Shown: positions 1-18,121 of the stretch, one piece after another | Numbering within the stretch: position 1 is the stretch's first letter | How the letters are laid out: every line of letters begins with the position of its first letter | Assembly: GCF_004376175.1 (NCBI RefSeq) | Contig: NZ_SNUY01000014.1 | Coordinates: forward strand, 30,001 to 62,000 | From: Halalkalibacterium halodurans | GTDB taxonomy: Bacteria; Bacillota; Bacilli; Bacillales; Bacillaceae_D | Length of the DNA: 32,000 bases | Direction of reading: 5' to 3' | Notes under the pieces: generated by a model | What the model saw: only the letters and a program-made list of their open reading frames with translations | Database searches by the model: none | Told to the model about the DNA's origin: nothing | Made by a program: the position numbers and the translations under genes

Positions 1-1274
1 TTAGTCCAATGCTGATCATTAATCTTTTCATTGTTCTGGGATGTCTAATCTACATGGGATGGCTATCCATATCAGTGCTCTTCATTGGACTAACATTTAT
101 GACGATAGCATTTTTTAGCTACCAAATGCTGATGAAGATAGCTAACAAATATCTAGCAAGTGCGAGAGAGGAACACGACTCACTTTTTAGACATTTTAAA
201 TCACTTACAAGCGGAACAAAAGAATTAAAAATGAGCAAACAGCGTCGAATAGATTTCTTCGATAAGCAGTTAACACCAACAATAAGGGGTGTTTATAAGG
301 ACACTGTAAAAGGCATGACAATATATACTGCAGCTGGAAACTGGGGACAAATGCTATTCCTGTTTTTTATTGCGCTGGTCATCTTCTTTATTCCCCAGCT
401 TAACCTAGTCAGTACAGAGATATTAACTGGATATACGCTATCGATTTTATATATGATCACACCTTTGGTTACAATCCTTAATGTCTTTCCAAACTTCGGG
501 CGTGCCAATGTGGCTCTTAGGAAGATTGAAAAGCTCGAACTCGCTACAGAGGATGAAGAGTTGATGAGCAATCGAGAACAGTTACCGAGTAGTTTTAACG
601 AGATCAGACTAATAGATTTAACCCACACGTATTATCGAGAAGAGGAAGATCATAACTTTACACTCGGACCAATCAATTTGACCTTCAAAGAAAATGAGCT
701 CATCTTCCTCGTAGGTGGTAACGGGAGTGGAAAAACAACACTAGCCAAACTGATTACCGGGTTATATGAGCCTGAAGGGGGGAGGATAGAGGTCAATGGT
801 CAGCCTATCACAGATAAGCACATTGATCATTACCGCCAGCTCTTTTCTACAGTGTTCTCAGATTTTTATCTTTTCGAGCAATTTATTGGTATCTCAGAAG
901 ACAAAGTAAAAGAGGAAGCGGAAGAGTACCTGCGGCTTCTTCAACTAAATCATAAGGTAAAGGTTGAAGAAGATCGCTTATCAACAACAGATCTGTCAGG
1001 AGGACAAAGGAAGCGACTTGCGTTGTTAGTTTCATATCTGGAGGATAGACCATTTTATGTATTTGATGAATGGGCGGCAGATCAGGATCCGCTGTTCAAA
1101 GACTTCTTTTATACAAAACTTCTACCAGCTTTGAAAGGTAAGGGCAAGACGGTGCTTGTAATCTCACATGATGATAAATATTTCAACGTGGCGGACAGAA
1201 TCATTAAGATAGACTACGGGCAAGTGATAAAAGATGAGCCTATTGAAGCACTATCACAGCAAGCAGCTGAGTAA
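1..1274 (+). CDS. ABC exporter, fused permease-ATPase of the cyclic-peptide / peptide-siderophore exporter type (SyrD/PvdE/YojI-like); 5' end outside window
   Basis: The frame stays open back to base 3, with no stop before the first ATG at 9, so the N-terminus is missing. Hydrophobic TM segments precede an NBD with Walker A GGNGSGKTT, ABC signature LSGGQRKRLAL, Walker B FYVFDEWAADQD and H-loop VISHD. It lies directly upstream of an MbtH-like gene. Confidence 0.85.
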   Translation, partial: SPMLIINLFIVLGCLIYMGWLSISVLFIGLTFMTIAFFSYQMLMKIANKYLASAREEHDSLFRHFKSLTSGTKELKMSKQRRIDFFDKQLTPTIRGVYKDTVKGMTIYTAAGNWGQMLFLFFIALVIFFIPQLNLVSTEILTGYTLSILYMITPLVTILNVFPNFGRANVALRKIEKLELATEDEELMSNREQLPSSFNEIRLIDLTHTYYREEEDHNFTLGPINLTFKENELIFLVGGNGSGKTTLAKLITGLYEPEGGRIEVNGQPITDKHIDHYRQLFSTVFSDFYLFEQFIGISEDKVKEEAEEYLRLLQLNHKVKVEEDRLSTTDLSGGQRKRLALLVSYLEDRPFYVFDEWAADQDPLFKDFFYTKLLPALKGKGKTVLVISHDDKYFNVADRIIKIDYGQVIKDEPIEALSQQAAE

Positions 1275-1353
1275 TCGGTGGGTTGCCACATATGCTATTT
1301 AAGTAATAGAAGATTCATTATACAGAAACTTCATTGAAAGGGGGTGATAAACC

Positions 1354-1563
1354 ATGGAGAACACAAACATCCAATATAAAGTTGTATACAATCACGAAGA
1401 ACAGTACTCAATTTGGCCAGCTCATAGAGAGCTGCCGAACGGATGGTTTGAGGAGGGTACGATTGGAGAGAAGGAAGAATGTCTTCAACGGATCGAGGAA
1501 GTATGGACAGATATGAGACCACTAAGTCTAAGAAAGCAACTATCTAAGGCTGAAGGCAATTAA
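1354..1563 (+). CDS. MbtH-like protein (NRPS adenylation-domain partner)
   Basis: The 69-aa product carries the family signature NHEEQYSIWP ... PNGW ... WTDMRP. SD GAAAGGGGGTGA lies 6-8 nt upstream of the ATG. Confidence 0.92.
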   Translation: MENTNIQYKVVYNHEEQYSIWPAHRELPNGWFEEGTIGEKEECLQRIEEVWTDMRPLSLRKQLSKAEGN

Positions 1564-1614
1564 TATAAAGCTTTATACATGTATTGATCTTTTAAAAAGG
1601 GGTGCATACGTGAG

Positions 1615-2040
1615 GTGAGCAACACTAGATATGAAGAAAAGTTACCTGATCTCTATTCTCTTAATAGAGATCAGGCTCAGCAGCATATTCTGAAATACCT
1701 AGAGCAGCTATTAATCGAACATACTGAATATGATGCGCAGCTCGAGATCGAAAATGTGAAGATCATGGAATGGGTACAGGACTCATTAACAGCAATTAAG
1801 CTAAAGGCACACATAGAAAAAGATATAGGAATAGAGATAGACGTATCTGAACTGTTTGAAGAGCAATCACTATTACAGTTAACAGCAATGATGATTGACC
1901 TCGTAGATGAACTGAGGCATTCATCCAGCTCTTCTATTGATTCGGGTGAGGAAAAGGATTTCTTCACTGAAGAGCTACAAAAGATGAGTGACGAAGAGAT
2001 CAATGAATTATATGAACAAATACAAAAAAGCAAGTCATAA
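1615..2040 (+). CDS. Stand-alone carrier protein (PCP/ACP-like) with N-terminal extension and acidic, Ser-rich C-terminal tail
   Basis: GTG start 6 nt after AAAAGGGGTG. The core EWVQDSLTAIKLKAHIEKDIGIEIDVSELFEEQSLLQLTAMM matches the carrier-protein helix II pattern (DSL with the phosphopantetheine Ser, then a hydrophobic helix). The tail is HSSSSSIDSGEEKDFFTEELQKMSDEEINELYEQIQ. Confidence 0.6.
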   Translation: MSNTRYEEKLPDLYSLNRDQAQQHILKYLEQLLIEHTEYDAQLEIENVKIMEWVQDSLTAIKLKAHIEKDIGIEIDVSELFEEQSLLQLTAMMIDLVDELRHSSSSSIDSGEEKDFFTEELQKMSDEEINELYEQIQKSKS

Positions 2041-2099
2041 ACGGATATTTTACAGGAAGAAGCTATAAATTCCTTAATATTGAGGGGTGAGATAAAGAT

Positions 2100-2837
2100 T
2101 TGCAGACAAAAGGTGTAATTGTAACAGGTGGTTCAAGGGGGATAGGAAGGGCAACAGTAGAATTGCTAGCAAGAGAAGGAGTTGATGTTGCTTTTACCTA
2201 CAACACAAACCATGAAGCCGCACAGGAAGTATGCGAATGCACAAAGCATGACAAAGGGAGAGTCAAGGGATTTCAAGCTAGTGCAAAATCGTTCAGTGAA
2301 GCAAAAGAAGTCGTTCATGAAATGACAGCATTTTTAGGGAGAATAGATGGCTTAGTACTGAATGCAGGAATAAATAAGGATATGCCGTTAATGATGATGA
2401 GCGAAGAAGACTGGGACAATGTCATTACTACAAACATTGGTGGTGTATTCAATTATACGAAGCCTGTTATTTATCAGATGATGAAGCAAAAGCATGGAAA
2501 AATTGTCTGTATCACATCCGTCAGTGGCTTAAAAGGGATATCTGGTCAGACAAATTATTCAGCTTCAAAAGCAGCACAAATTGGCTTTGTCCGTTCTCTA
2601 TCAAAAGAGGTCGCACGATTTAACATTAACGTTAATGCTATTGCACCAGGGTTTATCGAAACGGATATGTGGTCTTCAATTGCTCAAAAGCAGAGGGAGG
2701 AGATTCAACAGGAGATTCCCTTCGGTAGACCAGGAAAAGTAGATGAAGTATCAGAGGTGATTAAGTTTTTATTATCTGATAAATCAAGCTATATGACTGG
2801 AAGTGTCATTGTTGTTGATGGTGGCTTAAGCTCATAA
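2100..2837 (+). CDS. 3-oxoacyl-ACP reductase (FabG-type SDR ketoreductase)
   Basis: TTG start after GAGGGGTGAG. Cofactor motif TGGSRGIGRA, NAG motif LNAGI, catalytic S...YSASK. Confidence 0.9.
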   Translation: MQTKGVIVTGGSRGIGRATVELLAREGVDVAFTYNTNHEAAQEVCECTKHDKGRVKGFQASAKSFSEAKEVVHEMTAFLGRIDGLVLNAGINKDMPLMMMSEEDWDNVITTNIGGVFNYTKPVIYQMMKQKHGKIVCITSVSGLKGISGQTNYSASKAAQIGFVRSLSKEVARFNINVNAIAPGFIETDMWSSIAQKQREEIQQEIPFGRPGKVDEVSEVIKFLLSDKSSYMTGSVIVVDGGLSS

Positions 2838-2928
2838 CCAACAATGGCTATACATTGATATACGCTTGACTAATACAAGGATGGGCACGAATTGAACATC
2901 TAAATACACAAATCTTGGAGGGATAATA

Positions 2929-3180
2929 ATGAAAATTTTAAAGGAAGATTTAAAAGAATTAATCGTAGAAATCATTGAGGAAGAGGATTTACAAGATACG
3001 GATCATTTTGTTGACGATCTTGGTGTAGACTCGATGATGGCTATTGAAATTGTCGCACAAATCGAAAAGAAATATAAAATTACAATTTCAGAAGAATACT
3101 TACCAAAAGTAACTTCATTGAATGACGTTTATGAAGTGGTCACAAATATTGTGGAAAGCACTGTAGTAAAAGAAGGGTAG
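2929..3180 (+). CDS. Acyl carrier protein
   Basis: The 83-aa acidic protein has DDLGVDSMMAIEIVAQIEKKY (DSM with the phosphopantetheine Ser). SD GGAGGG upstream. Confidence 0.88.
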   Translation: MKILKEDLKELIVEIIEEEDLQDTDHFVDDLGVDSMMAIEIVAQIEKKYKITISEEYLPKVTSLNDVYEVVTNIVESTVVKEG

Positions 3181-3184
3181 CTCA

Positions 3185-4402
3185 ATGGAAAGAAAGAGAA
3201 TTGTCATAACTGGAATAGGTGTACTTACTCCTATCGGTTCAGGAAAAGAAGTGTTCTGGGAGAATTTATGTCAAGGTAAAGTTGGAACAGAAGAAGAAGT
3301 GACAGCCTTTAATACAGAAAAATTTGACTGTCATATTGGTGGAGAAGTAAGAGATATTGATCCTGAACAGTTTTTTGAAAAGAATGCTCCTAGCTTAGTA
3401 GGGAGAACGACCCAGCTAGCAGTGGCTGCTGCAAAGATGGCTGTCAAAGATGCTAACATACCAGATTTCTGTGCAAATGCTGATAGAGTCTCAGTTTGTA
3501 TGGGCACGACAATGGGAAACAATAGCGTGATTGAAAAGTATCATGAGAACAGTTTAACGAGTGAGCAAGAAGCGAGTACCGAGTATATGACAAATTATTC
3601 TCTAAATCGGTTATCTTCAGTCGTTGCAGAAGAACTAGGCGCAGAAGGGACATGTATGGTGGTCCCTACTGCCTGCGCCGCAGGAAACTATGCGATTGGA
3701 CTTGGAAAGGATTTGATTGAAGAAGGGAAAGCAGATAAGGCCATTGTAGGTGGTGCTGATGCAATGTCCCGTGTCATATACACAACATTTTCTCGTTTAG
3801 GTGCGATGGCTCAAAGCGCTTCAAAGCCCTTTGATAAAAATAGAGACGGCATTAATGTGAGTGAAGGAGCAGGAGTATTAGTTTTAGAGGATTATGAAAA
3901 GGCTAAACAACGAGGGGCAAGAATATATGCCGAGCTGCTTGGGCATGGATTAGCATGTGATGCACATCATCCCACAGCGCCTCACCCTGAAGGAGAAGGG
4001 GCTGAACAAGCAATTAAAAAGGCTCTCATCGACGCAGGAATATCTGTTGAAGATGTTTCATATATAAATGCACACGGAACGGGTACAAAAGCGAATGATC
4101 AAACAGAATCGATGGCGATTAAAAATGTTTTTGGCCCATACGCTGACCAAGTTCCTGTTAGTTCAGTTAAATCGATGTTAGGCCATACTATGGGGGCAGC
4201 AAGTGCGATAGAAGCAATCGTCTGTACCCTATCAATCTATCACTCACTTATTCCCCCAACGATGAATATCGAAGTTCTGGATGAAGAATGTTTAAGTAGT
4301 GTGGTTGTAAAAGAGCCTATAGCAAAGCCGGTGAAATTCGCTATTAGTAATTCATTCGCCTTTGGTGGGAACATTTCGATTATATCTTTAGGGAGTGTAT
4401 AA
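3185..4402 (+). CDS. Beta-ketoacyl-ACP synthase, KS-alpha (FabF / type II KS family, catalytically complete)
   Basis: Cys-His-His triad is present: PTACAAGN (Cys codon TGC at 3674-3676), DAHHPTAP, NAHGTGT, plus GHTMGAAS. It starts 4 nt after the ACP stop. Confidence 0.92.
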   Translation: MERKRIVITGIGVLTPIGSGKEVFWENLCQGKVGTEEEVTAFNTEKFDCHIGGEVRDIDPEQFFEKNAPSLVGRTTQLAVAAAKMAVKDANIPDFCANADRVSVCMGTTMGNNSVIEKYHENSLTSEQEASTEYMTNYSLNRLSSVVAEELGAEGTCMVVPTACAAGNYAIGLGKDLIEEGKADKAIVGGADAMSRVIYTTFSRLGAMAQSASKPFDKNRDGINVSEGAGVLVLEDYEKAKQRGARIYAELLGHGLACDAHHPTAPHPEGEGAEQAIKKALIDAGISVEDVSYINAHGTGTKANDQTESMAIKNVFGPYADQVPVSSVKSMLGHTMGAASAIEAIVCTLSIYHSLIPPTMNIEVLDEECLSSVVVKEPIAKPVKFAISNSFAFGGNISIISLGSV

Positions 4403-5659
4403 ATGATGAATGACCTACAGGATCCAATAGTTATAAGTGGAATTGGTCAGGTTTCACCGTATGGGATTGATAAGGAGCTATTATGGAACGTACTGTTTAA
4501 AACAAAAAGCGAAATTGATCAACTGAAAAAAAGTAGGATTGGAAACATTGATGAGGAGAATGGTTTATTCATTCCCTCCGATTGGAATCCAAAAGAGCTA
4601 TTAGGTAAACGTGGGCTCCAATTCTTGAATGCGAGTACTAAGTATCTAATGGCTGCGACTAATCTAGCTCTAGAGCATGCACAATTATCTAGCGAAACGG
4701 TAAATGCCGAAGAATTAGGAGTCGTTGTAGGCTGCAACTATACAGGATTAGCCGTTTCAATAGAATATGATCAAATCGCAATTACGGAAGGGCCAAGATA
4801 CGTTAGCCCAATGCAAGCTCCAAATATTTTAGCAAATGCTCCTGCATCTCACTTAGGGATTAGGGTACAGGCTCAAGCTTGTAATACAACGATATCTACC
4901 GGTCAATGTGCGGGCTTAGATGCACTCGGCTACAGTATGAACCTACTAAAAAGAAACAGGGCCAAATATGTCATCGTTGGTGGTGTTGAAGAGTTAAACG
5001 AAAGTGTCATACAGTACCTCAAGCGTTCGGACCATACTCCTAAGAATATGACTGATAAACAAGGGATACCGTATGCACCAGATTCAGCTGGAATTCTGCC
5101 TAGTGAGGGAGCTGTCACGGTCATACTAGAAAGAAAATCTACTGCAATCGATAGAGGAATCCAACCTTTAGCAGAGCTGGTTTCTTGGGATAATGTGTTT
5201 GCTGCACGGAAGGACGAATCTCATCGAGTTGCAGCGGTGAGAAGAGCACTAACCTCTGTAGTAAATGCAGCTTCAGCATCCATAGAAGATATAGGCCTGA
5301 TATTTTCAGGGGCAAATGGGGACTATGAAATAGATCGAGTAGAACTGCTCGCATTGCAAGAACTACTAGAAATGGGAGAAAAGCAAGTGAATAGCCCTAA
5401 GGTTTTTCCTATCAAATCAGTAGTAGGAGAGGCATTTGGTGCGAGCGGTTTGTTTCAACTGTCAGGAGCTTTAGGCTTTTTAAACAAAAAGAAATGGCCA
5501 AGCCCGTATGGAAATGATGCGGATCAAGTTGATCCAACCTTTGCCTCTCTACTGAACTATAATCAAGCGTGGACTGAAGAAAATGAATGTCCATATATTG
5601 CGCTTACTTCCCATAGCCGATCAGGAGAAACGAGTGCAATCCTTATTCGTTCAACATAG
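4403..5659 (+). CDS. KS-beta / chain-length-factor-like ketosynthase paralogue (active-site Cys replaced by Gln, both His lost)
   Basis: The ATG abuts the KS-alpha TAA stop. Thiolase-fold length, with STGQCAGLDAL in which Gln (CAA 4904-4906) sits 4 residues before LD, the position of the KS cysteine. The HGTxT position reads SGANGD and the GHxxGAAG position reads GEAFGASG. Confidence 0.8.
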   Translation: MMNDLQDPIVISGIGQVSPYGIDKELLWNVLFKTKSEIDQLKKSRIGNIDEENGLFIPSDWNPKELLGKRGLQFLNASTKYLMAATNLALEHAQLSSETVNAEELGVVVGCNYTGLAVSIEYDQIAITEGPRYVSPMQAPNILANAPASHLGIRVQAQACNTTISTGQCAGLDALGYSMNLLKRNRAKYVIVGGVEELNESVIQYLKRSDHTPKNMTDKQGIPYAPDSAGILPSEGAVTVILERKSTAIDRGIQPLAELVSWDNVFAARKDESHRVAAVRRALTSVVNAASASIEDIGLIFSGANGDYEIDRVELLALQELLEMGEKQVNSPKVFPIKSVVGEAFGASGLFQLSGALGFLNKKKWPSPYGNDADQVDPTFASLLNYNQAWTEENECPYIALTSHSRSGETSAILIRST

Positions 5660-5700
5660 ATTTAACAAGATGAACAGTGGAAAGAAGGAGTGGTATATGA

Positions 5701-6147
5701 ATGGATCAGAACCTTAGTTATGAACAAGTGCGATCTCTGCTACCTCAAAAACATCCCTTTATCTTCATAGATACAGTAGAGCAGATAGAGCCAGATAACA
5801 GAATTGTATGTGTTAAAAATCTGACAGGGAATGAGTGGTACGTTCCAGGCCATTTCCCTGACCAAACCGTTTTTCCGGGAGTGTTACTCGTTGAGGCGAT
5901 GGCTCAATCAGGTATTTTATTATACAAGCTAAGTCAGGAGGATATCAGTAGTACTGAGAAACAACAGTTTCTTCTATCAGGAGTGAAAGTGCGCTTTTTA
6001 AATCCGGCTGTACCAGGTAATCAAATCAGAATTGAAACAGAGTATGTCAAAATGACGGCAAATGCTGGGATTGTAACGTCAACAGGCTGGGTTGGTGAAT
6101 CAAAAATTGCTAAAGCAGATATTACGCTTGCAATATCTAATAAATGA
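5701..6147 (+). CDS. 3-hydroxyacyl-ACP dehydratase (FabZ-type hot-dog fold)
   Basis: HPFIFIDTV ... PGHFPDQTVFPGVLLVEAMAQ contains the catalytic His and Glu of FabZ. Confidence 0.88.
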   Translation: MDQNLSYEQVRSLLPQKHPFIFIDTVEQIEPDNRIVCVKNLTGNEWYVPGHFPDQTVFPGVLLVEAMAQSGILLYKLSQEDISSTEKQQFLLSGVKVRFLNPAVPGNQIRIETEYVKMTANAGIVTSTGWVGESKIAKADITLAISNK

Positions 6148-7886
6148 GGATGGATGCAATGAATAATTCGTTTAACCGCTTAACGGATGTTATCTTATCA
6201 AAACGTAACGTGCACGACAGAGGAATCACATTTATTAAGGAGGAAAATATAGAGCATTTCGTATCCTATCATGACCTTCTGGACTCAGCTCTATCAATCA
6301 CTGGGTACCTTCAGCAGGTTGGAATCAAACCAGGAGATGAGGTTGTTTTACAAACGGAAGATGTTGAGCAATTTGTATATGCTTACTGGGCGTGTATATT
6401 AGGGGGATTTGTACCTGTACCGTTAAGTATTGGTGTGAATAAAGATCAACGTTTAAAGTTGTTGAACGTATGGGAGTACCTCAACAACCCGTTCTTACTT
6501 ACGAACGAAAAAAATACCCAGAGATTAGTGCGTTTTGCACAAAAATATTCCGTCACACAGCAATTTAAGCCGATATTAGAAACAAAAATAATCATTGAAC
6601 AGGCGGTCGAACAGGGTTCACCTGGATCGGTTTACACCCCAGAAGTGGACGATGTGGCGATGATACAGTTTTCTTCAGGGTCAACAGGGAGACCTAAAGG
6701 GGTGGCACTAACTCATCTAAATGTAATGACAAATATTAAAGACATTATTAGTGTAGGTCGAAATAAATGGGCTGATGACAGATTTGTTAGTTGGTTACCA
6801 ATGACACATGATTTTGGGCTTATTGCGCTACATTTGTTTCCGTTAACAGCGAACGCAAATCATATGATTATGCCAACACAGATGTTTATCATGTCGCCGT
6901 TACTATGGTTACGCAAAGCGAGTGAGTATAAGGCAACATGTCTAGCTTCTCCTAACTTCGGCTATCAGTACCTACTTAAATATCTTCAAGCATCGCGACT
7001 GAATCAATCGAAGTTAGATTTGTCGTCTGTAAGGTATATTTTCAATAGCGCAGAACAAATATCGCCTCAATTAGCTCGGTTATTTGTTGAAGCGTTGGAA
7101 CCTTACAATTTAAAAAGAAATGTAATTGTTCCAGCCTACGGCCTAGCAGAAGCAAGCGTAGCAGTTACAGTCTGTGAATTGTTTCAACCAATGAAAACGT
7201 ATGCCATCTCCCGTGATCAGTTAGATATTGGTTCAGAAATTCAAGAGGTACAGCAAGGTGGACTTGAATTAGTTGATTTAGGAAAATCCTTGCCGTCTGT
7301 TTCTATCAGGGTTTGTGATGATCAAGATAATGACCTTGGTGAAGATAGAATTGGACATATCCAAATGAGAGGGAAAAATGTAACCAAAGGCTATTATAAT
7401 AGCCCGGAAAGAAATGAACAATTATTTACACATGACGGTTATCTTAGAACGGGTGACATCGGATTTATTAAAGAAGGGAGCCTTGTTATAACTGGAAGAA
7501 AAAAGGATTTGGTTATAATTAATGGTCAAAATCTATATCCTTATGATATTGAAAGAGTGGCAGAAGAAGTTGAAGGATTAGAATTAAATACGTTTGCTTG
7601 CACTAGTGTTTATAATGACCAACTTGGCGAAGAAGAAGTGATTGGATTTTTGTTACATAGAGGCGACCTAAAAGATATCGTTCAACTAGCCCAAAAAGTC
7701 CAAAAGCATATCAAAGAACAAATGGGAGTGTTGTTAAAACAGTTCATTCCTGTGAAAAACATCCCTAGAACAACAAGCGGAAAAATTCAACGTTATCAAT
7801 TAGCGAAAGATTATGTACAAGGCGTTTATGATCAACAAATACAGGAATTTAACAAACTTTGTATGCACGAGTCTACAACGTTATAG
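6144..7886 (+). CDS. Fatty acyl-AMP ligase / acyl-ACP-loading adenylate-forming enzyme (FAAL-like)
   Basis: The ATG overlaps the FabZ stop (ATGA). ANL core motifs are QFSSGSTGRPKGV, YGLAEAS, TGDIG, GRKKDLVIINGQN, plus the C-terminal SGKIQR. The N-terminal layout is typical of FAALs. Whether it is a true FAAL or a CoA ligase cannot be decided by eye. Confidence 0.82.
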   Translation: MRMDAMNNSFNRLTDVILSKRNVHDRGITFIKEENIEHFVSYHDLLDSALSITGYLQQVGIKPGDEVVLQTEDVEQFVYAYWACILGGFVPVPLSIGVNKDQRLKLLNVWEYLNNPFLLTNEKNTQRLVRFAQKYSVTQQFKPILETKIIIEQAVEQGSPGSVYTPEVDDVAMIQFSSGSTGRPKGVALTHLNVMTNIKDIISVGRNKWADDRFVSWLPMTHDFGLIALHLFPLTANANHMIMPTQMFIMSPLLWLRKASEYKATCLASPNFGYQYLLKYLQASRLNQSKLDLSSVRYIFNSAEQISPQLARLFVEALEPYNLKRNVIVPAYGLAEASVAVTVCELFQPMKTYAISRDQLDIGSEIQEVQQGGLELVDLGKSLPSVSIRVCDDQDNDLGEDRIGHIQMRGKNVTKGYYNSPERNEQLFTHDGYLRTGDIGFIKEGSLVITGRKKDLVIINGQNLYPYDIERVAEEVEGLELNTFACTSVYNDQLGEEEVIGFLLHRGDLKDIVQLAQKVQKHIKEQMGVLLKQFIPVKNIPRTTSGKIQRYQLAKDYVQGVYDQQIQEFNKLCMHESTTL

Positions 7887-7945
7887 TAGAACAGTTGTTA
7901 TAAAGGAGCATACACCTTATAACAATTGATTAAGGAGGAAATGCG

Positions 7946-9307
7946 ATGAATTATCTGAATATAAAGACTACCCTTCCGGGGCCTCGCTCCAAAGAAATTT
8001 TAAATGAAAAGAATTCAGTGGCAAGAGCATTCGGTACATTTGTACCAGCAATAATAGATTATGCTCGTGGTGCCCAAGTGTGGGACCTAGATGGAAATCA
8101 ATTCATCGATCTTGCTGGAGGAGTAGGTTCGTTAAACGTGGGACATAGTCATCCAAAAGTGGTTGACGTTATACAAAAGCAAGCGGATAAATTTACACAT
8201 ACAGACTTCACAGTTATTCCTTATCAATCCTATTTTAAACTAGCAGAAAGACTCTGTTCCAAAATGCCTGGAGTTGAAGAAAAAAAAGCATGTTTCTTTA
8301 ATTCTGGTACAGAGGCAGTTGAAAATGCGATAAAGATTGCACGGAAAGCAACAGGACGCAGGTCTGTCATTTGCTTTAAAGGAGCCTTTCATGGGAGAAC
8401 GATGCTGTCATTATCGCTTACGAGCAAGATAAAGCCTTATAAAGAAGGAATGGGTCCATTCTTCAATGATATCTATCGTGTCCCTTATCCTTACGTGTAC
8501 CGTTGGGAGGATAGGGTCTGCTCAGAAGAAGTATCAAATCGAGCAATAAAAATGTTAAAGGAATTGTTTGTTAAGCAGGTTGATCCAAATGATGTCGCAG
8601 CACTGATAATCGAGCCGATTCAAGGAGAAGCAGGCTTTATTAATCCACCTATGCCTTATCTCCATCAAGTTCAGGAAGTATGTAATGAGTATGGTATCGT
8701 TTTCATAGTCGATGAGGTTCAAACAGGATACGGGAGAACGGGATGCTTTTTAGCGTCTGAATACTATGGTATCGAACCAGACTTAATCACGTTAGGAAAA
8801 TCTATCGCTGCTGGCCTTCCGCTTTCAGCCATTATCGGAAAAGAAAGAATCATGGACAGTGCAGGTGATGGAGCGGTTGGTGGTACATTTGTTGGAAATC
8901 CGATTGCCTGTACTGCAGCACTTGCAGTGCTAGACATATACGAAGAAGAAAACCTAGGTGAGCGGGCGAATAAAATAGGAGAAAAGATTGATCAATGGTT
9001 GCATCAATTGAAGAATAAATCACACCTTATTGGTGATATACGTGGAGTAGGAGCAATGAAAGCTTTTGAGCTTGTAAGAGACCACGAGACAAGAGAGCCA
9101 GCAGATGAAGAAACGTATGAAATTATTCAGCGCTGTTTGCATAAAGGGGTCATTCTATTTAAAGCAGGATTATATAACAATGTAATAAGGTTTTTAGTTC
9201 CGTTGGTGATTACTGACGATCAACTAGAAGAAGCGCTAGACGTGATAGAAGAGTGTGTAATCGAAGTCACGCATCAATATGAACGTCAGACGGTCGCTCA
9301 TGGGTAA
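7946..9307 (+). CDS. Class III PLP-dependent aminotransferase (GabT / omega-transaminase-like); last codons rewritten by IS insertion
   Basis: SGTEAVENAIKIAR, DEVQTGYGRTG and PLP-lysine motif TLGKSIAAGLPLS. The final Gly codon and the TAA stop (9303-9307) are supplied by the IS6 end. Confidence 0.9.
   Translation: MNYLNIKTTLPGPRSKEILNEKNSVARAFGTFVPAIIDYARGAQVWDLDGNQFIDLAGGVGSLNVGHSHPKVVDVIQKQADKFTHTDFTVIPYQSYFKLAERLCSKMPGVEEKKACFFNSGTEAVENAIKIARKATGRRSVICFKGAFHGRTMLSLSLTSKIKPYKEGMGPFFNDIYRVPYPYVYRWEDRVCSEEVSNRAIKMLKELFVKQVDPNDVAALIIEPIQGEAGFINPPMPYLHQVQEVCNEYGIVFIVDEVQTGYGRTGCFLASEYYGIEPDLITLGKSIAAGLPLSAIIGKERIMDSAGDGAVGGTFVGNPIACTAALAVLDIYEEENLGERANKIGEKIDQWLHQLKNKSHLIGDIRGVGAMKAFELVRDHETREPADEETYEIIQRCLHKGVILFKAGLYNNVIRFLVPLVITDDQLEEALDVIEECVIEVTHQYERQTVAHG
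9295..9302. repeat. Left copy of 8-bp target-site duplication CGCTCATG of the IS6-family element
   Basis: It is identical to 11136-11143 and immediately flanks the terminal inverted repeats. Confidence 0.75.
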
Positions 9308-11135
9308 TGTCAAAAGTTCTATGAAAACTCACTAGGCATTCAGTTCTTTTCTCTTTTGTGGGTGGAGGAGCCCCGCAATCGCTCTTGACAAACACGCCAA
9401 TGGTTTTGACTAAGGCTAAACAAGGGCGAAGGGGACAAAAGAAGGCATACCAAATAGCCCTTGGTTATTTCCATTTTAAACCATTGGCAAGTTCGGTTTG
9501 TCAAGAGTTCGCTACGCCGATTGCTGATGTTAGGGCTCAGCTAAACAAAAGCTAGGCAGTCTGATCAATCAACCATTGTTGAGCTAAGTCAATCAGCTTG
9601 GTCCAGCGTGCTGGCATGTTTGGAAGTTGTTCTAACTCTGGAATGAGAACAGGAACTTTACCTTCCAAGGCTGAATGCGGTCTTAGAAAGTTGAAGTAAG
9701 CCACAAATAAGGTCACAAATGATACGGATCCTTGTTCTGACCCGAATCCGTGAGTGGATCGGTAGTTGCCTTTAAAGGTTCGATTCAGTCTCTCAATAAT
9801 CTGTTTTAGCGGTCTATATTCCTTGGAGACTTCATCTTCATTGGTTAAGCCGATGACTTGTATTACGTCAAATGGAATCTCATGTTGGGAAAAGAAATGC
9901 TGTGCTAACAAGTAGATTGGGTTTCCATCGACAACGAATGTAAGGTTCTCAGGAATCTCTTTCAGCTTAAGTAATACTTCGTCAATCGCTCGAATGGCGG
10001 TCGCTGTGTCTCGATTTGGTGAGACAGGGTATGAGAGAATCACCTTTTTCACCGCATCAAAAAAGAAAAACAGATAGTGCCAACGACCATTCACACGGAT
10101 ATACGTTTCGTCACCACAGAATTGATCTGAAAGCTCATAAGGGTAGTGGTCGACGTAAGGCTTAAGCGTAAGTGCTACACTGTTTTCGTAGTTTAAAATG
10201 CTTTGGTGAGAAATGGATACACCATGAATATCTTTCATCAGTGCAGCTGTTTTACGAGCGGATAGCCCGTAATTCACGTGATACGTCAGAATGAGTCCAA
10301 GTGTATGTGGAGACACATAAAGCCTTGATAAATCGACTTTTGGCTTCTTGGGTGAATGTTTCGCTAACGGTTGATAGTCAATGTGAAACTGGCGGTAAAT
10401 ATACCGCATTTTAAAGGCTTGAGGGTCTTCTTTGAACCGTTTTTTCTCTTTTTGTGACATTCTACTCAATTTCTTTTGGTAGTAGGAACAGTCATTGTTT
10501 TTACACTTAAACACATTAAAGTCTTTTCTTTCCTTGATTTTTTCAAGAGTCTTGGCACAGTGAGGGCACTTAAGGATGGCCTCTTTGAGATAGCGGCTTT
10601 TTTGATTAAAAAGACAGGAACACACCTTACATTGAAACTGTCCTTTCCCTCCATTATTGGCATACAAATACTCGGATGGAGCACCACACTTTGGACATTT
10701 CATTGACGCAGGAACAGGTGTTGAATTAGAACGTCTCTGTACCGGTTTAAGAGGCTTTCCATTCGCCGCCAGATGCTCAGTTAATAACTGTTTAAAATCA
10801 AGTTTTTCTGGTACTTCAATGATCGGCAGATCGTCGACTTGAAGTTTCCGATAAGGTTTGTTCACTGGCGCTTCTATTGGCTTATCAAACATGCTTTTCC
10901 CAATCAGTAGGGTAAGCAACGTTCGAATCATTTGTTCTTGATAGTTTATTAACATAAGTAAATAGGTTATAATTTGAGGTAACAACTTGTCACATCCTTT
11001 TTTCTTAAGGGGATTGATGTCGTGTGGTTACCTCATCAATACCTTAGAATTCAGGGGGGTGGCAAGTTTTTTGCTTATAAAGCCCTCTAATATAGGATTT
11101 ATTAACCTATTTCTATATAAAGTTTTGACAATACG
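9303..11135 (-). mobile_element. IS6-family insertion sequence (about 1.83 kb) with long zinc-finger transposase
   Basis: Terminal inverted repeats: GGTAATGTCAAAAGTT (9303-9318) against the reverse complement of 11120-11135, CGTATTGTCAAAACTT (13 of 16 match). It is flanked by the 8-bp direct repeat CGCTCATG and has a single DDE transposase ORF. Confidence 0.78.
9552..10985 (-). CDS. IS6-family (IS240/IS26-like DDE) transposase with N-terminal multi-CxxC zinc-finger extension
   Basis: The catalytic core GDETYIRVNGRWHYLFFFFDAVKKVILSYPVSPNRDTATAIRAI ... IERLNRTFKGNYRSTHGF resembles the DDE_Tnp_IS240 pattern. The N-terminus has CPKCG...CKVCSC and CPHCA...CKNNDC. Confidence 0.85.
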   Translation of the reverse strand: MLPQIITYLLMLINYQEQMIRTLLTLLIGKSMFDKPIEAPVNKPYRKLQVDDLPIIEVPEKLDFKQLLTEHLAANGKPLKPVQRRSNSTPVPASMKCPKCGAPSEYLYANNGGKGQFQCKVCSCLFNQKSRYLKEAILKCPHCAKTLEKIKERKDFNVFKCKNNDCSYYQKKLSRMSQKEKKRFKEDPQAFKMRYIYRQFHIDYQPLAKHSPKKPKVDLSRLYVSPHTLGLILTYHVNYGLSARKTAALMKDIHGVSISHQSILNYENSVALTLKPYVDHYPYELSDQFCGDETYIRVNGRWHYLFFFFDAVKKVILSYPVSPNRDTATAIRAIDEVLLKLKEIPENLTFVVDGNPIYLLAQHFFSQHEIPFDVIQVIGLTNEDEVSKEYRPLKQIIERLNRTFKGNYRSTHGFGSEQGSVSFVTLFVAYFNFLRPHSALEGKVPVLIPELEQLPNMPARWTKLIDLAQQWLIDQTA

Positions 11136-11143
11136 CGCTCATG
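11136..11143. repeat. Right copy of 8-bp target-site duplication CGCTCATG
   Basis: It is identical to 9295-9302. Confidence 0.75.
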
Positions 11144-11159
11144 TAGGGGGGATAGGCAG

Positions 11160-12632
11160 ATGATTCAAGCTCAAAACTTTGTTGGTGGTACTTGGAAGAG
11201 TGGAAGTGGTGAGAAAATACTAAACTATAATCCAGCTACAAGAGAGCCCGTTTCTGAAGCAAACTCCTCCTCTGAACAAGACGTTCAAGAGGCGGTTGTG
11301 AAAGCGGGAGCTGCATTTGAGCTATGGAGAAAGAAACCTGCACCTTTAAGAGGGGAATACCTTTATCAGATAGGAATGCTTTTAAAAGAAAGGAAGCAAA
11401 GAATTGCGCGACTAATATCACTTGAGGTAGGTAAAACGAAGGTTGAAGCAGAGGGGGAAGTACAGGAAGCAATAGATATGGCCTTCTATATGGCTGGAGA
11501 AGGACGGAGAATGTTTGGACATACGATTCCATCAGAGCTACCTGATAAATGGACAATGTCAGCACGAGAGCCTGTGGGAATCATCGGGGCAATAAGTGCA
11601 TTTAATTTTCCTGTAGCGGTCCCTTCGTGGAAAATACTCCCATCCCTTATACTTGGAAATACAGTCGTATGGAAGCCGTCTCCTGAGACACCAGCAACTG
11701 CTACAGAATTTACCAGATGTTTTGAGGATGCAGGCCTACCTCCAGGAGTATTTAATCTAATACTAGGGGATGCTCAGCCAGGTCAATTTCTTGTTGAGGA
11801 GCCGAGAGTGGCACATATATCATTTACAGGCTCAACAGAAACGGGAAAAGTGGTTTACGAGAGTGCTGCAAAACAGCTCAAACGAGTCTCTCTAGAACTA
11901 GGGGGAAAGAATGCGATTATTGTGCTTAAGGATGCCAACCTGGAGCTTGCAGCCGAAGGAATTGTTTGGGCTGCGTTTGGTACAAGTGGTCAACGTTGTA
12001 CAGCTGCAAGCAGAGTAATAATCGAAGAAGGCATATACGATCAATTATTACAAAGAATATTGCAGATCACCTCCCAGCTCAATATTGGTGATGTAAGAGA
12101 TGAAAATGTTGATGTTGGACCACTGATTAATGAAAATAGTATCGAAAAGGTAGAGGCTTATATTAAACGAGCTGTCGAAGAAAACATCAAGGTTCATTGT
12201 GGTGGAAAAAGACTAGAAGGGCTTCCGGGTCATTTCTTCGCCCCAACAGTATTAGGTCCTGTTGACCCAACGAGCCCACTCGCCAAGGAAGAGATATTCG
12301 GTCCTGTACTATGCTTGATCAAAGCACAGGGGTTAGATGAGGCAATTAAAATCAATAACTCGGTAAGCTATGGGTTATCCACAGCCGTATTTACTAGGAA
12401 CGTTAATCATGCTTTCACAGGGATAAAAGGGATTGATACAGGCATCGTATACGTTAATCACGGAACGACTGGTGCAGAAATTCAGTTACCATTTGGAGGA
12501 ACAAAAGATACAGGTAATGGTATGCGTGAGGCGGGACAAGCCGCACTTGATGCATTTAGTGAATGGAAAACGATATATATTGACTACAGCGATAAACTGC
12601 AGCGAGCACAAATAGATACAGATCTACTTTAA
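11160..12632 (+). CDS. NAD(P)+-dependent aldehyde dehydrogenase
   Basis: The 490-aa product has VWKPSPETP, the general base in LELGGKNA, catalytic Cys in GTSGQRCTAAS and EEIFGPV. SD GGGGGGA lies upstream of the ATG. Confidence 0.9.
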   Translation: MIQAQNFVGGTWKSGSGEKILNYNPATREPVSEANSSSEQDVQEAVVKAGAAFELWRKKPAPLRGEYLYQIGMLLKERKQRIARLISLEVGKTKVEAEGEVQEAIDMAFYMAGEGRRMFGHTIPSELPDKWTMSAREPVGIIGAISAFNFPVAVPSWKILPSLILGNTVVWKPSPETPATATEFTRCFEDAGLPPGVFNLILGDAQPGQFLVEEPRVAHISFTGSTETGKVVYESAAKQLKRVSLELGGKNAIIVLKDANLELAAEGIVWAAFGTSGQRCTAASRVIIEEGIYDQLLQRILQITSQLNIGDVRDENVDVGPLINENSIEKVEAYIKRAVEENIKVHCGGKRLEGLPGHFFAPTVLGPVDPTSPLAKEEIFGPVLCLIKAQGLDEAIKINNSVSYGLSTAVFTRNVNHAFTGIKGIDTGIVYVNHGTTGAEIQLPFGGTKDTGNGMREAGQAALDAFSEWKTIYIDYSDKLQRAQIDTDLL

Positions 12633-12950
12633 GGCTATGATTTCTAAGAATCACTTGGAACGTAGCTTTCGAAGGGGAGAAAAAGACTTGATTATCTCCA
12701 ATCAAATCATTTATCCATCTTGCAACAACGAATACGGTAAGCTTGAAAAAAGTGATCGTATGTCCACCAAAGTATTTAAGAATCGAAGAAATTATTAATG
12801 AAACTCAGCGTTACTATCAAAGTAAAAACAACCTCTTAAAGAGTCGGAAAGCGATGAAACAGTATCATCAGTTTTTTTAGAGGTACCAAAATGAGGTAGA
12901 GGTTATATGCACATAACCCCTGTCAAGTAGACAATGAAAAAAAGAGTATT

Positions 12951-13030
12951 TTAAGCTGCGGCCTTTTCTCGGTATTCAATCGGGGAAAGGCCTTTAAATT
13001 TGGCTCTACAATAAATGTTGGGGTTTTCGC
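12951..13030 (-). pseudogene. 3'-terminal remnant of an IS3-family transposase (OrfB C-terminus)
   Basis: The minus-strand translation ends ...NIYCRAKFKGLSPIEYREKAAA*, matching the conserved IS3 integrase-core tail (YN..R...L.g.SP.eYr). No upstream catalytic region is present. Confidence 0.5.
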
Positions 13031-13119
13031 TCAAAAGAGGAAAAAAATGCACACAGGCTCCTTTATCCATTATCCTTGAATTGCCTAGAAACAAAGAAAG
13101 GATAGGAGCTGCGTGTACG

Positions 13120-13440
13120 ATGAATTTTACCATGGATTTGCCCGGATTAAAAGGTGTGAAGGTCACAAAGATGGAGGAACGAGAGGACTATATCGCACTC
13201 CATTTAGAAATGCCGCGAACGCCTCATTGTTGCCATCCTGTGGGAGAGAACCGAAAGAATTCATAATAATCGTATTCAAAAAGTTCAATCTCAAGCTCTT
13301 TGAACGGCGGATGTATCTCTATTCTTATCGAAAGCGCCGGTACGCGTGGTAGATGCGGAAAGCGGTTTATGTTGATATCGTATCTGGGAAACCGTTGTTT
13401 AGCTCTAAGGATAAGATGCTGGCTACGGTTGGCCAAGCTT
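13120..13440 (+). pseudogene. Frameshifted 5' fragment of an ISL3-family transposase
   Basis: MNFTMDLPGLKGVKVTKMEEREDYIALHLEMPRTPHCCHP.GE is followed, in another frame, by KFNLKLFERRMYLYSYRKRRYA and then a stop before CGKRF. This is the ISL3 N-terminal zinc-finger region, broken by stops and frameshifts. Confidence 0.55.
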
Positions 13441-13865
13441 TACCAAACCAATCGATGAAGAAGAAATTATTCAAAAAGAAGATCGTAGTCACGGAATGAT
13501 TCGGGCTTAGGTGCGAAGTAAGCAGGCGGATTCTTATTTAGGTACGTATTTCCAGATGGCCCTGGACCGAACGGTCTAAGTACTGCATTTTAACTCGGAT
13601 GCCTCCAAAGGCTGACCTTGAGAAAGAAGGATACGGAAAGTACAAAGAATTAATTAGAACACTTGGCGGTATGCCAAGTGTTCATGCGAAAAGTATCGAT
13701 TTCTGGCACTTTGCCCTTTTACAGAAGTGATATAAGAAATAATTCAGACTATAACCGATACTAAATCCGATCATCGGGTAACACGTAACGATTATACGTT
13801 CCAATCGGTTCGGAAAGTTAAGAAAGCGCTAACGATCCAGTAGAAATAATCATCCTATGAGAGCC

Positions 13866-14549
13866 TTAAAAGGCTGTAACAATTGTTTCCAAGGAAATTC
13901 GCTGAACACTTTTTGGGAAGTGTGGATGGCTCTGACATACAGCTAATTTATATTGTGGATCAACTTCATATTGCCTAAAATAGGCAGGTATCTGCTCTTG
14001 AACTGAACTGAAATATACCTGACTATTTATGACTCTGCAGCTAAACGAATTGAGTGGAATAGAAAGCCCTTTTCCTACCATTTTAATATAGCTTTCTTTG
14101 AGTGACCATAAATCATAGAAATAGGATTGCTTAGCTTTGCCTGTTTTCTCTTCTAGATCCCGAATCTCTGATTCCGAAAAAAAGCGCTCTGCAATCTCAA
14201 ATTCAATCGGCCGGACTTGTTCTATATCTATGCCAACTGGTTGATCATCAGTAGCACAGACTACCCAATTTCCGGAATGTGAAATGTTGAAATGGAACGA
14301 TGGCAGCCCTTTGACGAAAGGCTTTCCGTATGTATTGGTTTCGAACTGAATTTGGTCATTAGATATTTGAAGTTCCGTACGGATGATCTTTCGTACCAGC
14401 AGATCCGCCACTAAGCTCCGCAACGCATCTTCACGAAAAACGAATCGTTGAATTGTTTTTTGTTTCTCTTCGGAGAGCTCGGATAGCAAACGATGATATT
14501 GTCCTTCTGTAACATTGTAGTCTAATTGAATTGCATAAATACGGGACAT
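13866..14549 (-). CDS. sfp: Sfp-type 4'-phosphopantetheinyl transferase
   Basis: It is collinear with B. subtilis Sfp: YGKPF...FNISHSGNWVVCATDDQPVGIDIE ... WSLKESYIKMVGKGLSIPL. SD AGGAGG lies 6 nt before the ATG. Confidence 0.9.
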   Translation of the reverse strand: MSRIYAIQLDYNVTEGQYHRLLSELSEEKQKTIQRFVFREDALRSLVADLLVRKIIRTELQISNDQIQFETNTYGKPFVKGLPSFHFNISHSGNWVVCATDDQPVGIDIEQVRPIEFEIAERFFSESEIRDLEEKTGKAKQSYFYDLWSLKESYIKMVGKGLSIPLNSFSCRVINSQVYFSSVQEQIPAYFRQYEVDPQYKLAVCQSHPHFPKSVQRISLETIVTAF

Positions 14550-17191: not shown

Positions 17192-18121
17192 ATGCAGTTA
17201 ACTCGAGAGCAATTTGATCGCGTGAAAGCGTATGTTATGCGAGAGGCTAGACCGCTCGACAGGCAGTTGTTTCGCTATTATTTTGAAGGTGGGGACAGCG
17301 ATAAAGTGGCGCGCGAGCTCGCAGCTTTCCAAAATGAAGATGGAGGGTTTGGCCACAGTTTAGAGCCTGATTTTCGCTTAATTGCCTCGTCCTCATTAGC
17401 TACGACGGTCGGGATGCAGTATGCTCGTGCGATCGGTTTACCTAGTGAACATCCGATTGTGAAAGGAGCAATTGGTTATTTTCTCAATAAATACGATGAA
17501 AAGAAAAAGAAGTGGCAAATGGTCCCGAAAGAGGTAAACAACGTCCCCCATGCTCCGTGGTGGCATTTTGATGAAAGAAACGATTTCCCGGGTGAACACG
17601 ATTCATGGGCGAACCCAGGGGCAGAAATTGTTGCCTACCTTTACGAACATCGCAGCCTCGTTCCAGCCACTTTTTTAGCGGAAGTAACTGAAAACGCCAT
17701 GCACGCCGCCAGAACTGCGCCACTTGAGATGGAGATCCATGATTTTTATTGCTTTGCTCGTTTATTAGACGTCATTCCTGATCCATATAAGACGGAGTTA
17801 TTCGACAAGCTTAGTTCATCGGTTCGCGTCATAACCGCGCTCGTTCCTTCAGAGTGGGACGATTATGGAGCAAAGCCTTTGCACATCGCACCATCTCCTC
17901 ATTCTCCCTTTGCGCCGTTACTAGAAAAACAAATTGCTGAGAATCTTGATTATGAAATCAAACAGCTAGGAGAGGAGGGATATTGGCAACCTAATTGGTC
18001 TTGGTTCGGTCACTATGAAGACGTTTGGAAACAGGCTGAGATAGAATGGAGAGGCTATTTAACGGTGCACATGCTTAAAGTGTTGCAAAACTATGAAAGA
18101 ATCGAAACTTCGCAAGATTAG
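17192..18121 (+). CDS. Conserved hypothetical protein (309 aa), function unknown
   Basis: The ORF is long, with SD GAAAGGAGA and codon usage like its neighbours. It is rich in W/H/D, with FQNEDGGFGHSLEPD near the N-terminus. No motif I can assign securely. Confidence 0.5.
   Translation: MQLTREQFDRVKAYVMREARPLDRQLFRYYFEGGDSDKVARELAAFQNEDGGFGHSLEPDFRLIASSSLATTVGMQYARAIGLPSEHPIVKGAIGYFLNKYDEKKKKWQMVPKEVNNVPHAPWWHFDERNDFPGEHDSWANPGAEIVAYLYEHRSLVPATFLAEVTENAMHAARTAPLEMEIHDFYCFARLLDVIPDPYKTELFDKLSSSVRVITALVPSEWDDYGAKPLHIAPSPHSPFAPLLEKQIAENLDYEIKQLGEEGYWQPNWSWFGHYEDVWKQAEIEWRGYLTVHMLKVLQNYERIETSQD

Follow-up and report, generated by a model that had tools for sequence, protein, structure and literature searches.

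In the actinomycete cinnamoyl and polyene lipopeptide systems of skyllamycin, WS9326A and epoxinnamide, a discrete ketosynthase (KS) with an inactive partner, an acyl carrier protein (ACP), a ketoreductase (KR) and a dehydratase (DH), without an enoyl reductase (ER), are encoded beside a non-ribosomal peptide synthetase (NRPS) and an MbtH-like protein, and the acyl chain N-acylates the peptide. Ishigamide is formed by an iterative polyene-forming type II system, Iga11-Iga12 (6KXD), with KR and DH, in a pathway without a multimodular NRPS. The nearest published Firmicute precedent in concept is thumolycin (tho) of Bacillus thuringiensis BMB171/B. cereus, a pentapeptide with an arylpolyene lipid for which the KS ThoE, the adenylating enzyme ThoC, two NRPSs, a thioesterase (TE) and a phosphopantetheinyl transferase (PPTase) were described (PMC10672896). 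Here we analyze a gene set of this general kind in a stretch of 32,000 nucleotides of Halalkalibacterium halodurans DNA (contig NZ_SNUY01000014.1, positions 30,001 to 62,000), which we call the window. The segment at its start is fairly probably the 3' half of an NRPS lipopeptide cluster of approximately 45 kb, in which the lipid genes would act as a highly reducing type II polyketide synthase (PKS) feeding the NRPS. The actinomycete cinnamoyl lipopeptides can be regarded as the best-studied systems of the same logic and as a conceptual precedent.

Genes were assigned using a listing of the open reading frames (ORFs) and Pfam and NCBIfam scans of the window. The matches for the ten genes from the MbtH-like protein to the aldehyde dehydrogenase (ALDH) had E values between 1e-6 and 1e-162. 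All ten had been named in an original prediction made from the sequence alone, and all were found again on the plus strand at the same positions. The prediction described them as lying on one strand with minimal gaps. This is correct for the genes from MbtH to the aminotransferase, with intergenic gaps of -4 to 91 bp, and incorrect for the aminotransferase and ALDH genes, which are separated by 1,852 bp containing a transposase gene on the minus strand. Judged by this spacing, the genes from MbtH to the aminotransferase form a single tightly packed operon downstream of NRPS genes and an ABC exporter. The parts list was also incomplete, in that a pseudogene of the DDAH/arginine deiminase (ADI) superfamily, a terminator-like hairpin and an Sfp-type PPTase gene on the minus strand had been overlooked. 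The features of the segment are as follows.

9-1274, plus strand: cyclic-peptide export ABC transporter, C-terminal 421 of 533 aa, cut by the window start (Pfam ABC_tran, E 2.6e-29)
1354-1563, plus strand: MbtH-like NRPS accessory protein, 69 aa (PF03621, E 8.6e-19)
1615-2040, plus strand: free-standing carrier protein, 141 aa (PP-binding, E 1.8e-6 over residues 56-92)
2100-2837, plus strand: FabG-like ketoreductase (SDR/KR), 245 aa (adh_short_C2, E 2.5e-60; KR, E 5.3e-17)
2929-3180, plus strand: acyl carrier protein of the type II system, 83 aa (PP-binding, E 9.7e-12; DSM serine motif)
3185-4402, plus strand: KS-alpha, catalytic ketosynthase, 405 aa, with Cys164-His297-His334 (Pfam)
4403-5659, plus strand: KS-beta, chain-length-factor (CLF)-like partner, 418 aa, catalytically dead (Gln/Asn/Glu at the Cys/His/His positions)
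5701-6147, plus strand: FabZ/ApeI-type 3-hydroxyacyl-ACP dehydratase, 148 aa (FabA, E 1.1e-20)
6144-7886, plus strand: acyl-AMP ligase, 580 aa (AMP-binding, E 3e-53)
7946-9307, plus strand: GabT-type class III aminotransferase, 453 aa in this copy (Aminotran_3, E 8.9e-125)
9303-11135, minus strand: IS6-like insertion sequence (IS), 1,833 bp (transposase 9552-10985; DDE_Tnp_IS240, E 9e-9)
11160-12632, plus strand: ALDH7-like aldehyde dehydrogenase, 490 aa (Aldedh, E 5.5e-162)
12664-12922, plus strand: DDAH/arginine-deiminase-superfamily remnant, frameshifted and 3'-truncated (tblastn with the L086 protein)
12960-12992, plus strand: terminator-like hairpin, 14-bp stem (consensus scan only)
13866-14549, minus strand: Sfp-type 4'-phosphopantetheinyl transferase, 227 aa (AASDHPPT_N, E 3e-22; ACPS, E 2e-20)

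KS-alpha carries the residues Cys164, His297 and His334, which are invariant in 20 homologues. An NCBI protein of H. halodurans matches it with 100% identity. Among solved structures it scored 376 bits with 9s5h_B, 324 bits with Iga11 (the ishigamide KS, 6kxd_A), which is its best named solved relative, at most 307 bits with any FabF and 230 bits with the actinorhodin KS. The KS-beta gene starts at the first base past the KS-alpha stop codon. Its product has the Gln in place of the catalytic Cys to which the original prediction had drawn attention. This Gln is not conserved, its position being occupied by Ser, Lys or Phe in the orthologues, which makes a functional requirement for it unlikely. 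The best PDB match of KS-beta was 9s5h_C with 154 bits, and Iga12 (6kxd_B) reached just 41 bits. The best matches of KS-alpha and KS-beta are thus two chains of one PDB entry, which supports a putative heterodimer of the two proteins. Relatives of KS-beta are uncommon, with 134 clusters (50% identity) at E<=1e-30 among 1.84 billion representatives.

The KR has a YSASK motif and scored 275 bits with TIGR01830, below the cutoff of 298. The DH scored 130 bits with PDB entry 7qv0 and at most 78 bits with canonical FabZ structures, and for an identical product ApeI-like and ApeP-like matches are recorded. The KS heterodimer 9S5H/9S5I and the dehydratase 7QV0/8AYx are the best solved relatives of KS-alpha, KS-beta and the DH. 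The dehydratase entries are presumably from an anammox ladderane-lipid cluster, and the systems of these entries are not known to be linked to NRPSs. A text search for 9S5H gave nothing relevant. No member of an ER family was found by family scans in the window, in the overlapping contig L087 or in the related B. cereus-type cluster.

A neighbour-joining tree of 85 KS sequences from the fetched loci, calculated without bootstrap support and without a labelled or curated reference set, separated the solo KSs (FabF of Bacillaceae, clostridia and cyanobacteria), which form one clade, from the KSs with an adjacent partner. KS-alpha of the window was found in a Bacillales subclade of the partner-bearing group and not among housekeeping FabF proteins; the Bacillaceae FabF sequences L046 and L059 sit in the other clade. 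It is well supported by these comparisons that KS-alpha, the inactive KS-beta, the 83-aa ACP, the FabG-like KR and the FabZ/ApeI-like DH, without an ER, are a highly reducing type II PKS/fatty acid synthase-like set. The classification made in the original prediction was thereby borne out.

The presence of an MbtH gene and an exporter gene had been taken as a sign of an NRPS upstream of the window. On two Logan contigs (L001 and L087), which are 99.99-100% identical to the window over the shared span, an NRPS with a terminal TE was indeed found directly upstream. The order is the end of an NRPS (NRPS1) finishing in a condensation (C) domain, a TauD-family dioxygenase, a second NRPS (NRPS2) with a C-like, an adenylation (A) and a thiolation (T) domain, a 2,498-aa NRPS with the domains C-A-T-C-A-T-TE, and the ABC exporter. 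The full-length copy of this exporter on L087 scored 472 bits with TIGR01194 (cutoff 286), in agreement with its earlier designation as a cyclic-peptide-type transporter. In H. halodurans NRPS1 is P0256, a protein of 2,014 aa with the domains C-A-T-E-C, where E denotes an epimerization domain. The A domains of the 2,498-aa NRPS have the codes DFWNIGMVH and DVWHISLVD, which we take to be codes for Thr and Ser, respectively. An in-trans module, suggested by the lone C domain at the end of NRPS1, was considered and rejected, since NRPS2 supplies A and T domains.

The C-like domain following the TauD-family protein has SALNADA in place of the HHxxxDG motif, and the HH was likewise lost in two other lineages. 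The corresponding motifs in the three lineages are SALNADA (module at L087, 2215-5394), SALNSDV (module at L091, 16806-19997) and LSLNTDF (module at L090, 17062-20202). Such HH-less domains would fit 'interface' domains that recruit TauD-type beta-hydroxylases. The C-like domain is probably a docking domain for the hydroxylase and not a catalyst. The nearest relative of the cluster (L086/L091, KS 80% identical) has seven NRPS modules and the B. cereus-type cluster has five. In L091 (9627-15718) NRPS1 was called as two ORFs of 124 and 1,905 aa, which reflects a frameshift or an assembly error. In the B. cereus-type cluster no module precedes the first NRPS gene, whose product begins with a C domain in which the HHxxxDG motif (HHLAIDG) is intact; by its domain order this is the layout expected for N-acylation.

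KS homologues sharing 54-68% identity with that of the window were found in no fewer than twelve genera or groups of Bacillales, namely Metabacillus, the Bacillus cereus group, Cytobacillus, Salibacterium, Cohnella, Paenibacillus, Brevibacillus and Gorillibacterium, further Kroppenstedtia, Lysinibacillus, Oceanobacillus and Shouchella, and also in Ktedonobacteria. The matches listed from a profile scan of contigs with the KS alignment were mostly distant KSs (<=54% identity) and did not include the close relatives; the gene context was obtained by look-ups of exact proteins. The rarity in Firmicutes that the original prediction had assumed is not supported in view of this distribution and of thumolycin as a published Bacillus precedent. 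The gene order of the window-type cluster ('type B'), NRPS-ABC-MbtH-KR-ACP-KS-KSb-DH-AT-ALDH (AT, aminotransferase; KSb, KS-beta), is conserved in B. tropicus/B. cereus, Metabacillus arenae and Salibacterium, where genes for PadR and an RND/MMPL exporter follow. These relatives share 73-74% identity with the window in the aminotransferase, 69-70% in the ALDH and 67-68% in the KS. Across related clusters MbtH is 68-89% identical and the aminotransferase 73-85%. A PPTase gene also borders the B. cereus-type cluster. The Sfp-type PPTase at 13866-14549 is probably the carrier-activating enzyme of the window cluster, and the hairpin at 12960-12992 probably terminates the operon.

In B. cereus VKM B-370 the type B cluster is located on a 334-kb plasmid (NZ_CP070340.1; L093, 22549-63745) typed as conjugative (MOBP, MPF_T), and it is annotated there with generic names alone, such as fabG, fabZ and gabT. 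The location on a conjugative plasmid could account for the patchy spread of the cluster in Bacillales. In a sister type, found in Paenibacillus dendritiformis and on a Bacillus chromosome, genes of this KS/KS-beta family stand together with those for a ligase, an aromatic ammonia-lyase and NRPSs. The sister type shows that the KS family serves NRPSs with chains built on varied primers. At the head of the B. cereus-type cluster (L090, 2489-5386) lie a divergent arginine-deiminase-superfamily gene (311 aa) and a gene for a CrtI-family flavoenzyme (492 aa). The latter, matching 'Amino_oxidase', was considered as an amine oxidase; this was dropped, as the protein belongs to the CrtI family, and it might isomerize or desaturate the polyene. 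Clusters to which antiSMASH gave the label 'ladderane' in B. cereus (PMC9715469, PMC10672896), together with a plasmid KS of approximately 36% identity, were also considered as relatives and turned out to be an unrelated glycan-type cluster. One unrelated cluster of this kind, on plasmid p2 of B. cereus SB1 (L094, 47448-84626), encodes an 818-aa KS-family protein, fabD, fabG, ACP and fabZ along with a large GNAT protein and dTDP-rhamnose genes, and is probably the 'ladderane / S-layer glycan' cluster of antiSMASH.

The acyl-AMP ligase had been named a fatty acyl-AMP ligase (FAAL). It is an acyl-AMP ligase; the closer name is approximate, because among solved structures the protein matched the McyG loading domain (317 bits) and 6ulw (303 bits) better than the E. 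coli FAAL (217 bits). The NCBIfam FAAL subfamily PRK09192 scored 342 bits, below its cutoff of 600. The McyG loading domain presumably activates phenylpropanoids, and 6ulw is presumably an adenylation protein that activates alpha-keto acids. The window ligase presumably activates a carboxylic acid other than an alpha-amino acid and loads it as a primer onto the 141-aa carrier. This carrier has a DSL serine motif and an acidic, Ser-rich C-terminal tail, is restricted to the H. halodurans copies and L086 (61% identity), where it always occurs alongside the ligase, and is the putative acceptor of the ligase.

From these assignments the following pathway is proposed. In the H. halodurans lineage the acyl-AMP ligase would activate a carboxylic acid primer and place it on the 141-aa carrier. 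The KS set would then extend the primer iteratively with malonyl units, with malonyl-ACP provided by the housekeeping FabD. In each round the beta-keto group would be reduced and dehydrated while the enoyl group would never be reduced, giving a polyenoyl chain on the ACP. Once finished, the chain would be handed to the condensation domain at the N-terminus of the first NRPS module and acylate a peptide of 5-7 residues. This peptide is predicted to contain a hydroxylated residue, formed with the TauD-family protein and the catalytically dead C-like domain, followed by Thr and Ser, and would be released by the TE and then exported. Absence of genes for a malonyl transferase, an ER and a free thioesterase, noticed earlier for the cassette, extends to the entire 32-kb window according to the Pfam and NCBIfam scans.

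Several observations weigh against this pathway. The putative starter C domain of the H. halodurans cluster is deduced from its counterpart in the B. cereus-type cluster. The bit score of KS-alpha is just slightly nearer to Iga11 (324) than to FabF (<=307), and its placement rests on the tree described above, with its lack of bootstrap values and labelled references. An ER or an isomerase could act in trans, and the B. cereus-type cluster has the CrtI-family gene. The length and unsaturation of the polyenoyl chain are predictions. Among solved structures, the ligase is closest to the McyG loading domain and to another adenylation protein (6ulw), which presumably activate phenylpropanoids and alpha-keto acids. 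Finally, the B. cereus-type clusters possess the aminotransferase/ALDH pair and have neither the ligase nor the 141-aa carrier, so that, if the pair makes the primer, these clusters must load it by another route.

The function of the aminotransferase and ALDH bears on the nature of the primer. The aminotransferase scored 525 bits with TIGR00700, the GabT equivalog, above the cutoff of 507, and 391 bits with E. coli GabT compared to 188 bits with putrescine aminotransferase. It retains the GabT residues R141, E211, K268 and R398. These free-acid-binding residues argue against a thioester substrate such as that of the iturin-type AMT, which aminates a beta-keto thioester. For the ALDH the best NCBIfam models were alpha-ketoglutarate-semialdehyde dehydrogenase (467 bits) and piperideine-6-carboxylate dehydrogenase (435 bits), both below cutoff, and the PDB matches were Pcd (342 bits) and the alpha-aminoadipic semialdehyde dehydrogenase ALDH7A1 (approximately 330 bits). 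In the uninterrupted copy (L001) the stop codon of the aminotransferase gene overlaps the start codon of the ALDH gene (ATGA); from this overlap both genes were originally translationally coupled. Coupling and enzyme families together point to amine to aldehyde to carboxylate chemistry on a carboxylate-bearing amine, rather than to the installation of an amine in a lipid. The 'amino-functionalized' tail of the original prediction is at odds with this amine-removal layout.

Tentatively, we prefer the possibility that the pair supplies a dicarboxylic or amino-dicarboxylic acid as primer for the adjacent ligase. That this acid would prime the type II PKS via the ligase and the 141-aa carrier, giving an omega-carboxy (or aminoadipyl-type) polyene lipid on the peptide, is a rather doubtful extension. 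We know of no such lipid class or priming logic for non-ribosomal lipopeptides.

Nearly as likely as the primer is a role outside the lipid. L-Lysine is converted to 2-aminoadipate by lat and pcd in beta-lactam clusters. Likewise, the window pair may turn a basic side chain into a carboxylate and provide an acidic building block, e.g. 2-aminoadipate, to the NRPS, while the lipid would be a plain polyenoyl chain and the DDAH/ADI-family enzyme would supply ornithine or citrulline from arginine. The second-best NCBIfam family and the PDB matches of the ALDH suit this idea, as do its GEVQE and GQRCT motifs, which are presumably those of ALDH7A1. Models for arginine dihydrolase and DDAH gave matches to the DDAH-like protein. 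The conserved A-domain code of NRPS2, DAK[C/N][L/F]GLSN, is Glu-like in the first three positions and differs in the rest, and the NRPS1 code, DPENAGFTT, is acidic at position 239, a feature of Lys-type codes. On the other hand, K239 in the NRPS2 code suits Glu itself, so that a special residue may not be needed. Moreover, the aminotransferase passes TIGR00700 and retains R141, the residue that binds the carboxylate of C4-C5 omega-amino acids, and its 25 best NCBIfam matches did not include a lysine epsilon-aminotransferase family. The two genes also lie inside the lipid cassette beside the ligase and not beside the NRPS.

Less probable than a primer or an acidic residue is an extension of the original prediction, in which the aminotransferase, the ALDH and the DDAH/ADI protein make an omega-amino or omega-guanidino acid, such as gamma-aminobutyric acid (GABA) or 4-guanidinobutyrate, that the ligase loads to give an amino- or guanidino-terminated unsaturated tail; we consider this unlikely. 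The genes for the ligase, aminotransferase, ALDH and DDAH-like protein are adjacent in L086, and a second member of the superfamily heads the B. cereus-type cluster; the two superfamily proteins are, however, 22% identical and differently placed, and they score to hydrolases (DDAH, arginine dihydrolase, arginine deiminase) and not to amidinotransferases. A diamine would be needed, in conflict with the preference of the aminotransferase for GabT over putrescine aminotransferase and with its carboxylate-binding Arg, and the coupling of an aminotransferase to an ALDH serves to take an amine away, not to add one. Fusaricidin has a guanidino lipid. Its formation in Paenibacillus polymyxa needs a ligase, an ALDH, a KS and a dehydratase encoded beside the NRPS (PMC6829208), which resembles the window cassette. 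Only these four are shared, so that the fusaricidin analogy drawn before is loose: the fus genes comprise one KS, an acetolactate-synthase-like enzyme and an enoyl reductase and include neither a CLF nor a dedicated ACP (PMC6829208), lack a GabT-type aminotransferase and yield a saturated lipid, whereas the window has a CLF and two carriers and neither an acetolactate-synthase-like gene nor an ER.

Cispentacin is made by B. cereus. It is nevertheless very improbable that the cassette builds a carrier-bound non-proteinogenic amino acid, i.e. a cispentacin/coronafacic-acid-type ring or a beta-amino acid, for insertion into the peptide. The window does resemble the cispentacin and coronafacic acid systems (AmcB-H, Cfa1-5), in which a single operon likewise encodes an ACP and its adenylating loader, a KS with a KS-like partner, a hot-dog-fold protein and an aminotransferase (PMC10698177). 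The NCBIfam models AmcB, AmcE and AmcF match, and NRPS1 ends with a lone C domain. Yet the scores are far below cutoff (AmcF 254 bits, cutoff 325; AmcE 87, cutoff 140; AmcB 38, cutoff 80) and are exceeded by those of FabF (407 bits for the KS) and FabZ, and no AmcG or AmcH model was among the NCBIfam matches listed. Cispentacin-type machinery was rejected on this basis. In addition, the window has a KR, its KS partner has a recognizable KS fold with CLF-like changes, NRPS2 following the lone C domain has its own A and T domains, so that no module is missing, and the aminotransferase keeps the residues for a free acid. Scarcely plausible, finally, is a chance location of spare housekeeping fatty acid synthesis genes (KS, KR, DH, ACP) beside an NRPS, as would fit the best NCBIfam models FabF, FabG and FabZ and the corresponding RefSeq names of the B. 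cereus plasmid copy, because all three scores are below the equivalog cutoffs, KS-beta is dead and lies directly 3' of KS-alpha, KS-alpha is outside the solo-FabF clade, the block keeps its synteny with NRPS genes across five genera and is plasmid-borne in B. cereus, and the GC content is 0.40 in the cluster compared to 0.45 in the downstream flank.

A characterized cluster with this gene set, including CLF, aminotransferase, ALDH and a lipopeptide product, was not found in literature searches of open-access papers, in line with the earlier statement that no characterized Bacillus lipopeptide locus matches. Thumolycin, compared here by its published description, has the peptide Orn-Thr-Ile-Gln-Leu, which differs from that of the window cluster, and its lipid structure is unsolved (PMC10672896). 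An aromatic ammonia-lyase gene (Lyase_aromatic) is absent from the window and from L087 and present in the sister loci L085 and L089; these ammonia-lyase clusters start with residues other than those of thumolycin. The actinomycete cinnamoyl clusters, which have several KS pairs and isomerases, differ from the window with its one KS pair and its lack of benzene-ring-forming genes. To our knowledge, they have no counterpart of the GabT-type aminotransferase, the ALDH, the acyl-AMP ligase or the 141-aa carrier. Four Streptomyces loci with KS, ACP, KR and MbtH genes (L040, L054, L074 and L080) were among the matches listed, with approximately 43% KS identity; this is no higher than the identity to FabF, and the loci belong to a different phylum.

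The copy of the cluster in this strain is damaged, which the original prediction had passed over. The contig L001/L087 is 99.99% identical to positions 1-9302 of the window and 100% identical to positions 11136-12947, without the intervening 1,833 bp. Imperfect inverted repeats are present at the termini of this element (9303-11135), which lies between two direct copies of the 8-bp sequence CGCTCATG (9295-9302 and 11136-11143), a target-site duplication. The empty site is present in L001. The transposase of the element, with 477 aa, is about twice as long as the 202 positions of the IS6 model, which scored best with 76 bits (cutoff 125). The plasmid collection contained no match to the IS, and the window no further copy of it. 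The IS replaces the last 6 codons of the aminotransferase gene (453 aa here, 458 aa in the intact copy) and, judging from this arrangement, cuts the ALDH gene off from its operon in this strain. The last gene of the cluster is a pseudogene. In tblastn, residues 2-30 of the L086 protein align in one frame and residues 6-88 in another, with stop codons, and the gene is intact in L086 (293 aa; PF19420, E 6.5e-33). As the ALDH gene is separated and the last gene is pseudogenized, the output of the cluster in this strain is probably reduced or altered. Between the remnant and the PPTase gene (12947-13860) no ORF with a Pfam match was found. The Logan contig stops at 12947, as is common for assemblies at repeats. 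Positions 13130-13300, considered as the N-terminus of an ISL3 transposase on account of a resemblance, had no Pfam support.

Thus, for this strain the main message is decay by IS insertion and pseudogene formation. The cluster family itself is real, has no characterized product and is a variant on a known design; it is a reasonable target for genome mining, preferably in a strain whose copy is intact, and no surprise to the specialist. If active in such strains, it would represent an unexplored lipopeptide family that is spread over several genera of the Bacillales and present in B. cereus associated with food and insects, with a lipid from polyene-type machinery and not from primary metabolism. 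The compact, dissociated, low-GC set of KS/CLF, KR, DH and ACP from easily handled hosts may be of use for the engineering of unsaturated acyl tails, and the role of the conserved aminotransferase/ALDH pair is a directly testable biochemical question.

The rest of the window contains further mobile elements. An IS256/Mutator-family element at 27384-28808 (transposase 27477-28673; PF00872, E 6e-126) has 20-nt terminal inverted repeats at 27384-27403 and 28789-28808 and splits an ABC-F-type ATPase gene into the parts 26339-27394 and 28845-29414. At the window end, a short DDE_Tnp_1 (IS4-like) transposase ORF is found on the minus strand (31313-31927). With this ORF and two other IS elements, the 32-kb window carries an unusual number of mobile elements. 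No matches were obtained when it was scanned for Rfam families and tRNAs. A 309-aa ORF without a Pfam family (17192-18121) lies between two DinB-family genes, and a 186-aa ORF at 23389-23949 had no Pfam match. A GerA-family spore germination gene (29622-31179) is split into the overlapping ORFs 29622-30260 and 30097-31179, which cover profile positions 2-140 and 139-465, respectively; this is a probable frameshift, caused either by pseudogenization or by a sequencing error.

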